Made by a program: the position numbers and the translations under genes. 64,000 nt of DNA from Eledone cirrhosa (lineage: Eukaryota): assembly GCA_964016885.1 (NCBI GenBank), contig OZ024740.1:333374001-333438000 (forward strand). The letters run 5' to 3'. Every line of letters starts with the position of its first letter. The stretch's first letter is position 1. Under the pieces are notes generated by a model, which had not been told where the DNA came from, did not search any database, and worked only from the letters and a program-made list of their open reading frames with translations. Shown piece by piece: positions 1,724 through 56,610 of this stretch.

Positions 1724-2110
1724 AAGTTAAAACAATGAAATAAAAAATCAAGTCATTAGATATATACTTCACTGCTTTACGATCGTTTCTAGATGATGAT
1801 AATACATTGTATCTATACTCAGTTATTGATCTATGTAAGTTTACAAACTATCAGATAAAGAAAATATTTACTTACATGCATATCACCAGCTGTTTTTAAA
1901 AGCAATAACGATCGTAAAGCTGTGAAGTATATCTCTCATGACTTGATTTTTTTTTTCATTGTTTTAACTTATATCATGACTCTGTTTTCCTTTTAATGTT
2001 TTATTGTTTTCCGAGATTTATCTTAACCTACAACCTTTTCAACATATGGATTACACCGAGTGAGTTCTTCATGCAGAATAGACCCCCACAACTTACTGTG
2101 GATAGCTCTG
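1724..2110. mobile_element. Solo fold-back fragment of the PLE family-A pseudo-LTR, between (TA)n tracts
   Basis: 1724-1907 matches 12563-12748 directly; 1908-2110 matches the reverse complement of about 12425-12625; internal inverted repeat 1724-1787 vs 1908-1972. Confidence 0.8.
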
Positions 2111-3171
2111 TATATATATATGTATATATATATAAATATATATATATATATATATATATATATATATATATATATATATTTCCATTCATCTGAGGGTTCT
2201 AAGCCCCATTCTGAGGCTAAAATTTATTTAGTCTAAAATACGGTGAAAGCTATTTTCTAATTTCAAAGCTGCTCACTGTTTCAAAACATACTTATTTATA
2301 TATATATATATACACACACATATACATATAAATATACATATATAATTTTTTTATTTTAATTTTAATTGTAATTTTTTCTTAATAATTTTTAATTATTTAT
2401 TTTTATTTCTTTAAAAATTAATTATCTCTTATAAATTATTTTTAAAAAAAATGTTCTCAAATTTTTGATATGTTTTCAATATTTTTTATTAGATATATAA
2501 TCACTAACTGATTCTGGCTAAATATATCTTTCAACATTTATACTTATTTTGACTAAATAGTCTCATACTAATGAATAAATAAATTAAACTGGAGTTTTTC
2601 CGTATCTTCCCATTTTAAAATATATAAATATAAATATTCTTATTAACTCAGTTAATTTAATTTAATTTAACTTAATATTTATTTACATTAAAAACAAAAC
2701 AAATATCCCTCATAACTCATTAAAACAATTATCTATATCATGATATACCCATCTATTTATTTATTTATTTATTTATTTGTTTATTTATTTATTTATCGAC
2801 CTATAACAGAACATATATTATAAACGAATTTTAAACACCTAATAATCGTAAATACATGTACTATTCAGATATATACTTAGAATATATTTCCCTCAAATTA
2901 ATGTTATATGAGTTTTATTCATCCTCTCTTGTTTATTTATTATCTCTCTCTCTCTCTCTCGTACTATTTTTTATCTTTCTCCCCTTATATATTCTCTCTC
3001 TTTCTCCATAGTCGCTTAAATAAACGGTTGTTTTTCAATTATTTACATATTCATTTGCATATTCACACATAAGTTGAATAATCCCTAATATATTTCCACT
3101 TTCCAGTGAATTTCCAACCTATAAGGTATGATTTTCATGGGTACGTCTCTATTTATAAAAGAAACTTTGTA

Positions 3172-3230
3172 TTTTATCTGATGAAAGCGTACCAATGTTG
3201 TCTTGGTACTCTTGAAATATATATAATAAA
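3172..3230 (+). ncRNA. Minimal type-I hammerhead ribozyme in a pLTR-like module (about 3095-3368)
   Basis: ttat-CTGATGA-aagcgTACCAA tgttgtc TTGGTActctt-GAAA-tatatata-ataa; palindromic stem III; module homologous to 23427-23760 and 47255-47620. Confidence 0.75.
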
Positions 3231-3530
3231 ATAAATATGGTTTTATAAATATAGTTTCCATTTCTTTACTATCATTGAATATTTACTCCAGTACTGTTGA
3301 GTGCTCTAAATCAGTTATAAACATTTATATTTGTCGGACTTCCAACAAATTAAATACCCCTTCTACGTATATATATACATATATATTTATATATATATAC
3401 TATAAGGACAATTGTTTAATGTATTCATTACGTTTAATTAGTAGTGACGCGTGTTTCGCTATTGATCAGCTCAAGTGGATCTGTAGCTTGTCGGATCACA
3501 GACGATGTCTGACGAGCTTTAGATTCAAGA

Positions 3531-52706: not shown

Positions 52707-53630
52707 CTAGCTGAAATACCCGGTGTTGTCCGGGATTACTGTTGTTCTTATTCAAATTAGTAAACAAAAGTATGAAGATATTTTAATTTTTTCTCATAAT
52801 TATTTCAAAATATCTATAATTTATAAAAACAAATATCAAAATTTTAATAATTATAGAATCTAGAAATGAAAATATGTCAATCCTGAATCACCTTAGGGTA
52901 AACAATTTTCATTGTGTCACTTTTTGTTGCTGTCCAAATGAATAAATTGTTGCTACGCACTCAAACACATACATTCTCACTTACACTCACAGACAGATTC
53001 TAAGACAGACACACATACATACATTCACGCAGATATACATATTCATGTACAAAATGTGACGTCATTCTGTTGTTTTCTTTTATTTTAATCCAAATGAAAA
53101 TAAATTATCACACATACACTCACACACACATATACTCACACACACATACACCCACACATACATACACTCACACAAACATACACTCATACAAATACTAAAA
53201 CACACACACACAGACATGCAATAATGCACAACTATTACATGTCTGTCAGCAAATGTATCTGTATGAGTAGATGTGTGTGTTTAATTCTCTGTGTGTGAAG
53301 ATAATGTGTATGCAACTTACTAAGGTTATATGCATGTGTAGATGTGTGTGTGTATGGTTAATTCTCTGAGGGCTAACGTTAAAATAAAAATAATCACGCA
53401 CACATACACTCACACAGACATACACTCACACGCACATACACTCTCACATACATATCCGAAGACAGGCACACACAGACATATATTCACGATCACATATTAC
53501 TTGTCCATCAAGACATGTGTACATGTATGTGTAGATGTGTGTATGAGTTTAGTTTTCTGTGTGTGAAGATAATGTGCATGCAACTTACTAATATATATGT
53601 GTGTGTGGGCGTGTTTGTGTCTCAGTCCCG
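52707..53630 (-). mobile_element. Non-autonomous Helitron-like element (3' terminus at 52707; far boundary uncertain)
   Basis: Minus strand ends CCCGG-acaaca-CCGGG hairpin, 8 nt, then CTAG followed by T, the canonical Helitron 3' end; internal tandem duplications 53215-53590. Confidence 0.65.
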
Positions 53631-53814
53631 TGTTCAATCGGGGGTAGCCACAGTTAGTAAAGTAATCAATACATTAGTAAAGTGGGAAGCTTGCGTGGTG
53701 ATTTTTGTTAGATTAAACAGTTCTAGTTATTAATGTTCTGTTGTGATCCGCTCTGGTGTGTGTGTGTGGTTGTGATGTTGTTATGTGATAAATGATACGT
53801 TAATAACACAGTAG

Positions 53815-56610
53815 AAGTTACTAGGGAAAAATACGGATTCCAATCCTACAAAAATTCACTGAATAACCCCCAGCTTGATGCCTTCGAACTCGACCTCACG
53901 AACATGATAAGTGGAACCAAATTCAAAAAAACGTACGGGTTACAACAAATTGCAAAACGACATCAACGCACCACTGAAGAAACTACGCAACACCAACGGA
54001 ATTATAGTAAAAGCGGAAAAAACATCAAACGTATACGCCGTGAGCCTTAACGCAATAATACAATAACTTTATACGTCGTGACCTACACAAAAGTATTCAA
54101 GAAAACTACAGAATCTAAACTCACTAGCATTAATAAGGAAGGACATAACATAGTAAATAAACTGAAATATCTGATTGAACCGAGCCTCTAACCCCTTGTA
54201 ACCCCCCGTTTAACCTAGAGGATCATAAATATAATGTCGAAACAGACCCCACAATTAGATTAATATGCCCATCGAAGTCGGATATAGGTAGAATTAGCTA
54301 GTATATACTAGATAGAGTAATAGCACAAATAATGAACAAACTATTAATTAAGCTATGGGGTAACACTAACGAAGCAATAGACTGGTTCAGCAAAATAGAC
54401 AGTAGGGGAACATCCAATTTCGTACAGTTTGACATTAACGACTACTACTACTCCATCTCCCCAGTCACCCTAGATAAAGCGCTAGCCTTTGCCCAGAAAA
54501 AATGAGACCTAACCTCTGATGAAATTAAAACAATACTAGCTGCTAGAAGAACTATCATTAGATTCGAAAATAGTTACTGGGTACGAAAAAACAGACAGAA
54601 TAGCTTCGATATCACAATGGGATATAGCGACTCAGCTCAGGTAACAGGCATAGTTGGAATATATATAGCGCATAACTTACACAAAGAATGTAATAACATA
54701 AAGGAGGAATTTATAGACACGACACACTTCTTTTAGCTAAGAACGTAAACAATCAAAACATGCAAAAATTACGGTAAAACATCAGTCTTCTTCAACAAAC
54801 TAGGCCTAGGTATCACTTTCGAACTTAAGTCTAAAACAGCAAACTTCTTAGACGTAAGACTCAACCTAAACACAGGATTAATAGACCTCTTCCATGAAAA
54901 TAACGAGAATCTAACCTACATTAGTGATAACTCAAACCACCCTCGATCCATAATTAACGCCATAGCACATAGTATATCCCTCAGAATATCCCGCCTATCT
55001 TCTAAACTAAGATTTTTAACGAATACGCAAACTATTATAACATGAGGTAGGCCATAAGGAGGGGCTCAAATACATACCAGATAGAGACAGCAACAACAAG
55101 CCTAACGACAGCTACACTACCCACACCTGTAGCAATAACAAACATAGAACTAAACATAAAAATAGACAACGAGCACTAGAAATAACTGAACCGAATACTA
55201 ATATAGGGACCCCTAGGAACTATAGCAGATCCAGAGATAGAAAATACTTATGGTTCAATCCAATATTCAACTCCTCTATAAAAACCAAATTACCTTCTAC
55301 ATTCTTTAAGCTAATTGACAAACACTTCCCTAAACTACACACATACTATATAATCTTTAACAGAAAAACTATCAAACTCTCTTACTCCACTGCAACCAGC
55401 ATAGAATCACACATACATAAAATCAACTACAAACAAAATAGATGCCTGGAATCAAGTATGGTGTACCTGTGTACTATAGATAGGGGAAATTTAACATGGC
55501 ACTACATAGGTTCCACGGCTGGGGAATTAAAAAAAAATGGTACGTTCTCAGACACTTTATGAAGAACTGTAGACTAGAGGACTCAACAACGTTGGCCAAT
55601 AAAATATGGCAGCTTAAGTACACAAACCAGGAATATAGGATTAGCTGGTTGAAATTATCGGGACAAGGCCCTACAACAATGGAATGTCCCACTGCGGACT
55701 TTGCAATATGGAAGTATTCCATATTTTAAAGTATTATAAGATGCTGCTTAACACTAAAATAGAAAGATCAATTTTCTCTAGGCACATAGCAGCTACCAAG
55801 TTCACAAATTTCAAACCAACATGATTCAACCCAGCAAACTCAAAATTCGAGCCGAACCACCCGGATTTTAATGTACTGAATACATACCACCCCACTGTTA
55901 TTAGCTGTCAACTGATCGACTGGTCACTAGATCAACATCATAAATATCCTAACCTTTCTTTCATTCTCTCTCCCTAAAGTCACATCAACCCCAATAAGAT
56001 AAGCCAATCAGCATGATAAATATTTACCACACTCACATATAAAAATCCACCTTCCCCATCCACCCTAAGCCCTACCCCTTATGTCTCATCCTCGTATCTC
56101 TCACTTAATTTTTAATTTATTATTTTTTATCTTTAATCTGTCATTTGTTACTACCTCTTATTCTCTACTTCCAACCATCTGAGATTTGACCAGCACGTAT
56201 GTATGTATCTAATGTTGCTTTTCATGTTAGTATTACCTCCACCCTCAAATCTTTATACATACACTTACTCACAACCACCACTATTATCAGCTATCGTATT
56301 CTGTACTTATATTATTTTTACTTATATTTTATTACTTTTTACATCTGTAACTTCTTTACCTCTTTATCATTATATTTTATTATTGATGCTATTGTTTTGA
56401 TTCTACGCTGTGTCTATATATACCACTGCCATATGTGAAATCTCTAGTATTCTGATGATTTGATCAGAGGTAAACACTGTATTTAAGGTCGAATGACGCA
56501 ACTTCGAGTGATTAGCGGCCATTAGACTCACCTGATCAATGAAACAATTGTTAATACTTGAAATAAAACCCTTGTTGTACAGCCGACCATGTTATTCTTC
56601 AATCTTTAAC
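53815..56610 (+). mobile_element. Penelope-like element (family-A-related) pseudogene with 3' pLTR and HHR
   Basis: IIVKAEKTSNVY, RLICPSKSDIGRI, FVQFDINDYY, FDITMGYSDSAQV, NFLDVRLNL, SNHPRSI, LWFNP, CGLCNME; ends in (TA)n. Confidence 0.88.
56446..56558 (+). ncRNA. Type-I hammerhead ribozyme with a large stem-II insertion
   Basis: agtatt-CTGATGA-tTTGATCAG...(about 64 nt)...CTGATCAAt-GAAA-caattgtt-aatact; 6-bp stem I, palindromic stem III. Confidence 0.85.

Follow-up and report, generated by a model that had tools for sequence, protein, structure and literature searches.

A 64,000-nucleotide stretch of the Eledone cirrhosa genome (GenBank assembly GCA_964016885.1, contig OZ024740.1, positions 333,374,001 to 333,438,000 of the forward strand; hereafter the window) carries Penelope-like elements (PLEs) whose 3' ends mostly adjoin (TA)n tracts. 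The insertions are mainly arranged as head-to-head pairs whose 3' ends both point outward into a tract, the ends of each family fall at fixed sites, a distal (long) end is paired with a proximal (short) end, and the sequence at the short site overlaps the TA target. The pattern is real and largely of a known kind, encountered here in new families; that PLEs, those of octopus among them, target (TA)n is already in print (PMC8557442), and the targeting itself is therefore not new. Inverted structures and microsatellite bias are termed unexplained in PMC8557442, and these open questions become testable through the long/short rule, the overlap of short sites with TA and two mixed-family joins. Moreover, islands of 30-450 bp without an open reading frame (ORF) between TA tracts are often PLE pieces in such genomes, which annotation would leave unclassified.

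Position and pairing of 3' ends at (TA)n tracts

Self-alignment, translation and a scan for hammerhead cores resolved at least 13 PLE families, designated by letters, in this AT-rich DNA, 4.1% of which is covered by (TA)n tracts of at least 10 bp. An alternating run of at least 8 bp adjoined 36 of the 41 PLE 3' ends, compared with 1.1% of random positions, and junction enrichment within the window is thus above background. An initial tally had given 35 of 37; the added ends belong to unit S (one match, one miss) and to two elements whose 3' regions have no tract nearer than 1.5 and 2.7 kb. No run was present at 3546, 33648 and 33655, nor are element B' and the fragment 19170-19900, whose ends were not called, counted as matches, which makes five misses. 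Ends of short interspersed nuclear elements (SINEs), taken as control, were found at tracts in 3 of 18 cases (Fisher p=2e-7 versus the PLE ends). Since PLE ends were called by eye, which makes the background comparison partly circular, an independent test was anchored on hammerhead-core motifs: a tract of at least 10 bp was present within 350 nt downstream of 11 of the 16 cores, versus 26.8% for random positions (p=5.5e-4). One of the misses in this test is the 5' pseudo-long terminal repeat (pLTR) of a full-length element, and another, located in an ORF, probably matches the motif by chance.

Long tracts do not belong to the element consensus, because longer copies pass through the short sites without a tract there; short TA runs (up to 11 bp) are element-encoded in places, such as 38903-38913 in a family C pLTR and 8077-8085 in family M. 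It is very probable that the TA-repeat sequence itself is targeted by these PLEs. An earlier note on this DNA had proposed such targeting by PLEs with a GIY-YIG endonuclease, which the data fit and which PMC8557442 had already described. All ends listed in that note lie within 1-2 nt of a tract, although two were misidentified. Position 23410, taken for a family B end, is the 5' truncation of the GC-rich, Neptune-like element B'; membership of family B was rejected, as the best nucleotide match had E=0.04 over 32 nt. The B' 3' region lies 2.7 kb from a tract. Position 43403, taken for a 3' end, is the 5' junction of the full-length C element (43402-38659).

The ends within a unit follow a strict rule. 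Tracts of at least 8 bp flank both outer ends in 14 of 15 head-to-head units, and each of the 12 same-family units in which two ends were called combines one long with one short end (chance 0.5^12=2.4e-4). The same pairing is seen in 10 of 10 units among them for which other copies establish the two sites as well. The short site lies 56-141 nt upstream of the long site, or 42 nt in a single copy that seems to carry a deletion, and the long arm may be the ORF-bearing arm, as in the A element at 12425, or the inverted arm, as in the C unit ending at 49110. The alternative end points per family that the earlier note had recognised are therefore not independent of one another.

Beyond the short site, longer copies read TAT, ATAT, ATATA or TATAT. 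The overlap with the tract amounts to 4 nt in C and F, 3 nt in G and H and 5 nt in O; Q gives 3 nt in a poor alignment, and the two D short ends have strict overlaps of 0 and 2 nt though both sit on an ATAT motif. Unit S was left out of the overlap test, its arms aligning poorly. If breaks fell at random and were joined to (TA)n in either phase, an overlap of at least 3 nt would result in 6-24% of cases, and the overlap of 3-5 nt in seven of eight families corresponds to p=1.9e-6; a conservative count with A and Q dropped gives five of six (p=1.5e-4). The overlap falls on the side where a primer would have to pair, and C and D, which are separate families, stop at the same motif. Microhomology at element ends, claimed earlier for the ends in general, is thus statistically supported at short ends, while long ends lack such support: ctctgTA (2110) and caacgaTA (11544) are long ends for which the window holds no longer copy for comparison, and the full-length C element (38659..43402) is the only copy that passes through a long end. 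Ribozyme cleavage is an unlikely cause of the ends, because these lie about 55-270 nt past the hammerhead core.

Mixed-family joins and the origin of head-to-head units

Two units have arms of different families. At 10687-10690 the endonuclease C-terminus of a Neptune-like B copy (-) meets the endonuclease region of a D copy (+), with an overlap of about 3-4 nt and no tract in between; the B part (9995-10690) continues into its pLTR, the D part consists of an endonuclease remnant and a pLTR up to the long end at 11544, and the unit as a whole (9995..11544) is flanked by tracts at 9994 and 11545. The second unit (7810..8224) joins a D pLTR (-, short end 7810) to a non-related M pLTR (+, end 8224, hammerhead core at 8040-8077 on the plus strand) at about 7978, again with no tract in between. 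For both joins the missing 5' parts of the partners were not found beyond the other partner, and simple nesting fails because neither partner continues there. Two successive insertions with loss of the intervening DNA are possible. For the B/D unit, 9995-10690 may originally have been paired with the B copy at 11878-12105, D having been inserted later; since both B copies (9995, 12105) end at the same site, such an original pair would break the long/short rule.

We give a slight preference to a mechanism in which the insertions are separate events, both strands of an existing (TA)n tract being nicked and each nick priming reverse transcription, with the short arm paired through TA. The tracts would pre-exist the insertion, and the GIY-YIG endonuclease, probably as a dimer, would nick both strands of the self-complementary (TA)n. 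The long arm would start at a tail site defined by protein or structure, and for the short arm a stretch of 3-5 nt paired with a UAU/AUAU motif of the RNA would likely assist priming. Two 5'-truncated cDNAs would then be joined at their 5' ends, the RNA usually being of one family and occasionally of two. Each insertion would leave tract on both sides, so that later elements could land next to it and build up arrays. In vitro, a PLE protein with a predicted dimeric state cuts both strands at AT-rich sites and extends them (PMC11167929), and PLEs without an endonuclease attach to telomeric overhangs assisted by complementary repeats (PMC8557442). It is possible, though less likely than not, that head-to-head units derive from two separate RNAs, one primed at its tail and the other through TA pairing on the nicked (TA)n strands, and that these RNAs may differ in clade, as with Neptune-like B and C-type D at 10688 or D and M at 7978. 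If true, a two-RNA origin would overturn the self-priming explanation and show homology-assisted priming in endonuclease-bearing PLEs, and joins of two RNAs would provide a route for exchange of endonucleases and pLTRs between clades.

Several points weigh against the preferred mechanism. In the only in vitro PLE system, reverse transcription starts at two internal RNA sites without target homology (PMC11167929), and an element resolved by the endonuclease at its internal TA motif would show an identical sequence signature. At the level of copies, strict overlap of at least 3 nt is found in only 9 of 14 short ends; the other five lie up to 4 nt from the motif and have junction mismatches. The A short end (ttaactTA) overlaps by 5 nt relative to one longer copy and by 0 relative to the other, and at long ends, where overlap is measurable in C only, it amounts to 3 nt for the junction at 38659 and to 1 nt for that at 47635. 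Three of the five tract-adjoining 5' ends share their tract with the 3' end of another PLE, so that the pre-existence of long tracts is not proven. Arms share variants slightly more within than between units in H (2 sites) and D (3 sites), with one site in A pointing the opposite way; this comparison, which has 0-3 informative sites per family for distinguishing one from two templates, leans slightly towards a shared template per unit, as would also fit fold-back or gene conversion. Finally, all of this is based on a single window. Duplication of one unit from another was considered and rejected for the two H units by the sites shared within each unit, and for the two G units by their differing inversion points.

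The foremost alternative, which we regard as rather unlikely, invokes a single priming event at the tail followed by a fold-back or self-primed inverted arm, after which the endonuclease cuts the internal TA and the cut end is joined to the tract, the overlap then reflecting cleavage specificity. It accounts directly for the pairing in all 12 units and for the arm similarity within H and D units; moreover, the one-sided tail has been ascribed to endonuclease resolution (PMC8557442), and self-priming has been proposed for head-to-head structures (PMC3846280). However, neither the B/D nor the D/M join can arise in one event, and by eye most inversion junctions have no clear palindrome, H being the exception.

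It is improbable that both sites are defined by protein or structure, as in the anole Poseidon element, with TA at the short site a coincidence in AT-rich RNA. Tail ends of that element do map to two non-homologous start sites (PMC11167929), and the pLTR-tail regions here are 50-79% AT; the overlap expected at random, however, is far exceeded by the seven of eight families given above, six tail regions folded no better than shuffled sequences (z -0.99 to 0.66), and the strict long/short pairing is left unexplained. There is likewise little probability that the elements inserted at short AT sites and that the tracts grew later, through reiterative copying of AUAU by the telomerase-related reverse transcriptase (RT) or through slippage. 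The ends at 3900, 17628, 33648 and 36201 adjoin runs of only 6-9 bp, and TA runs occur within elements (13534-13846, 41819-41837), as such growth would have it. Against it, 33 of the 63 tracts of at least 10 bp have no called PLE end (the other 30 do), the 5' ends at 11724 and 46579 adjoin tracts that lack a PLE 3' end on the opposite side, and ends of a SINE and of DNA-transposon-like sequences are at tracts as well. Neutral accumulation near tracts, with deletions from TA motif to tract trimming tails and fusing neighbours, finds some footing in the many PLE copies disabled by microhomology-mediated deletions (PMC3846280) and in the tract coverage of the window, and could explain both mixed joins, but is very improbable given that independent insertions repeatedly have their short end at one and the same site, never in both arms, and that the SINE control is far lower.

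Islands of 30-450 bp between tracts number 32 where 21 are expected (p=4e-4), about 12 of them being PLE pieces and one a SINE, the rest compound microsatellite interruptions or unassigned sequence. Between 38456 and 49110, 11 consecutive units are set apart from one another by tracts; seven are PLE-derived or PLE-like, and the array fits repeated splitting of one tract. The earlier suggestion that tract splitting makes such strings of islands thus agrees with the clustering and with this array; it covers only about 12 of the 32 islands, and other elements are found at tracts too.

Families and comparison with known elements

Clade labels are based on comparison by eye with the supplements of PMC8557442. 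Families A and E appear Hydra-like from their linker and RT motifs, shared with File S4 and Fig. S2 of that paper. The A linker reads CNCRNRNIC ahead of the endonuclease (CxCX5C, the Hydra type), E being decayed at that point; in keeping with the Hydra pattern of CxxC and CxH close to the conserved E and N, A has no CCHH, with one Cys in the GIY-YIG core and CR*C plus VCNH downstream (by eye, across one stop codon). Where the Hydra clade has DKT instead of DKG, E reads EKT, and the RWK motif was not seen in the decayed frames; A is truncated there. B and B' appear Neptune-like: both end in the Neptune-type GLN motif, their RT resembles by eye that of Neptune1_Ap, and their linker/CCHH region is frameshifted in the window, while a linker and CCHH of Neptune type are present in relatives P0021, P0027 and P0036. 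In C and D the linker is of the form CX4CxxC and the endonuclease of CCHH type; the linker CTNRKCIIC stands at 48200, and C, C, H, H, R, E and N are invariant in alignment A1. The short linker spacing and xLN end of C and D resemble, by eye, the Nematis rows of Fig. S2 of PMC8557442. Placement in Naiad was rejected, the endonuclease of A, B', C and E being C-terminal and not N-terminal; modules without an ORF fall outside this test.

Families F, G, H, M, N, O, Q and S are ORF-less pLTR pieces assigned from a hammerhead core or from architecture. The motif scan found cores in B, B', C, D, E, G, M, N, O and S, a variant in F, and none in A, H and Q; H pLTRs are putatively identified from architecture and a half core with a GAAA stem. 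Both F pLTR copies (43569-43592, -; 44557-44580, +) have CAGAAGA in place of the core CTGANGA and possibly form a non-canonical ribozyme. Hammerhead-like cores also occur outside assigned families at 50288-50315 (-) and at 46671-46716 (+), inside the island 46627-46954. The Rfam scan gave no hammerhead among the matches listed (150 of 170), which were repeat-driven and microRNA-like. As in canonical endonuclease-bearing (EN+) PLEs, pLTRs are direct or inverted with a one-sided tail, here of 56-141 nt.

The best named protein match of the ORF at 47651-48604 is an Octopus vulgaris protein, which by itself makes an octopus source likely; the earlier note had called this ORF an endonuclease, which holds for the coding sequence from 47711 onwards, the first 20 codons coming from an inverted pLTR and making the frame chimeric. 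The long C element matches Octopus vulgaris protein P0001 at 58.9% over 713 aa, a single ORF with RT plus a GIY-YIG at its C-terminus. Relatives of C match RVT_1 and GIY-YIG with scores under the curated cut-offs, and relatives of B' have PF00078, some also PF01541. No relevant Pfam match was obtained for 15 window fragments, a PDB sequence search with the C endonuclease gave chance matches only, and a protein search with the A fragment gave 0 matches among 291 candidates.

A preference for (TA)n is on record for Naiad, for Neptune PLEs and for almost every Hydra family (Craig et al. 2021, PMC8557442, main text and File S1), and that paper lists Naiad_Obim, Naiad_Ovul, Naiad_Omin and Hydra-1_Obim as inserting there. 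The Hydra clade, including Hydra-1_Obim of Octopus bimaculoides, shares with A and E the C-terminal endonuclease, the CxCX5C linker, (TA)n insertion and a hammerhead near the 3' end, although the A pLTR has no canonical core in the motif scan. One-sided tails of 30-40 nt are known (PMC3846280, PMC8557442), versus about 140 nt in A; the available parts of PMC8557442 do not mention a short-end overlap. With Neptune/Nematis PLEs (CX2-5CxxC linker), B and B' share the GLN end, and C and D share CX4CxxC and CCHH. For Neptune a bias towards microsatellites has been suggested (section 15 of PMC8557442, which cites Arkhipova 2006), in contrast to B', whose own end is off tract. Short de novo Chlamys insertions are consistent with (C)n targets (PMC9977147).

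Poseidon PAc of Anolis (Frangieh et al. 2024, PMC11167929) likewise has two internal start sites, cutting and extension of both strands, an AT-rich target and a predicted dimer; its start sites are not target-homologous and are separated by no more than a few tens of nt, whereas in the present elements the short site has 3-5 nt in common with the target and tails measure 56-141 nt. Penelope of Adineta vaga (PMC3846280) shares head-to-head inverted pLTRs with a tail on one, and asparagine-rich ORF inserts as in the full-length C element. It differs in that self-priming is the explanation given, target-site duplications are visible and the available parts describe no mixed-family joins; in the window, duplications would be invisible inside (TA)n. 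The available parts of PMC13282606, PMC3124438, PMC12602865 and bioRxiv 10.64898/2026.07.22.740005 contain nothing on junctions, and the literature search returned no account of short-end TA overlap or mixed-family PLE joins, although Arkhipova 2006, Repbase or supplements may hold one. Both arms of the units described here copy the same pLTR region. In L1 twin priming, two primers from two target strands give a head-to-head inversion whose arms, by contrast, copy non-overlapping parts of the RNA.

Element inventory and neighbouring repeats

In the first third of the window, a head-to-head pLTR unit of the Hydra-like family A (1725..2110) has its short end at 1725 (-) and its long end at 2110 (+), and is followed by a G pLTR with hammerhead core (3150..3367, +) whose long end adjoins the tract 3368-3399. 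The adjacent Q unit (3400..3900) runs from a short end at 3400 (-) to a long end at 3900 (+, 8-bp tract) and contains an internal copy with a tract-free end at 3546. The two H units are located at 7348..7505 (long 7348, -; short 7505, +) and 12219..12402 (long 12219, -; short 12402, +). Between them, beyond the mixed units, lie two solo pLTRs with a tract on each side: N (11724..11853, +, hammerhead core 11767-11798) and B (11878..12105, +). The Hydra-like A element (12425..16948, -) consists of a decayed RT-endonuclease ORF at about 16210-14150, a pLTR and a 138-nt tail to 12425, and its inverted arm (16213-16948, +) carries the short end. An M-related pLTR (17628..17760, -; 82% over 61 nt) ends at a 9-bp tract. 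A third Hydra-like endonuclease fragment is present at 18800-19900 (-), its 3' region being 1.5 kb from any tract.

Further on, the 5' truncation of B' (20303..23410, -) adjoins the tract 23411-23426, its 3' region lying off tract, and is followed by the first G unit (23427..23761; long 23427, -; short 23761, +). A D unit occupies 27658..28336 (short 27658, -; long 28336, +). The older unit S (33254..33648) has its long end (33254, -) at a 15-bp tract and its short end (+) at a 6-nt AT run only, next to a decayed Neptune-like copy of family B (33655..34640, -) with its 3' end off tract. The O unit (35711..36201) has its short end at 35711 (-) and its long end at 36201 (+), at a 9-bp run; it may reach 36232.

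The full-length C element (38659..43402, -) comprises a 5' pLTR (43402-43101), a decayed RT-GIY-YIG ORF, a 3' pLTR and a 58-nt tail, with tracts at both ends. Its ORF includes an asparagine-rich stretch at about 41500-42400, a SINE at 42008-42193 and the TA run at 41819-41837. The first F unit (43437..44626; long 43437, -; short 44626, +) has a SINE piece within it and the core variant mentioned above; a solo F fragment of 33 bp (46579..46611, +) lies between tracts, and the second F unit spans 46984..47134 (short 46984, -; long 47134, +). The second G unit (47256..47619; long 47256, -; short 47619, +) precedes the C unit, which consists of an inverted arm (47635-47710, -, long end) and a 5'-truncated element (47711-49110, +, short end) with an open thumb-linker-endonuclease frame, CX4CxxC at 48200 and YIGET at 48317. 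The Hydra-like E element (53800..56610, +; 5' boundary approximate) has a decayed ORF, a long-stem hammerhead core ending at 56544 and its 3' end at the tract starting at 56611. The GT-rich sequence at 53599-53790, between an 8-bp TA run and E, has no match to the E 3' end and might be a third mixed-family inverted arm.

Other repeats also occur at TA tracts. One of nine tRNA-like SINE copies (38456-38642) lies between two tracts, and several others have short direct repeats at their ends. A 13-nt terminus common to 36257 (+) and 46376 (-), which we take to be a DNA-transposon-like end, adjoins tracts, as does a presumably Helitron-like start at 52707 (+). The adjacent units 44654-45486 and 45500-46376, 79% alike over 551 nt and possibly an old tandem duplication, each contain an imperfect inverted repeat (about 69%) with A-box/B-box-like motifs. 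The islands 2180-2296, 7537-7781, 27447-27620, 28419-28668 and 46399-46562 are single-copy in the window or palindromic, the last of them matching 17440-17520. A decayed fragment at 762-1400 (-), near TG and TA repeats, had no Pfam match and presumably resembles the restriction-like endonuclease end of a non-LTR (long terminal repeat) retrotransposon. Finally, a decayed stretch at 58560-59630 (+) looks by eye like an element with a non-LTR reverse transcriptase.

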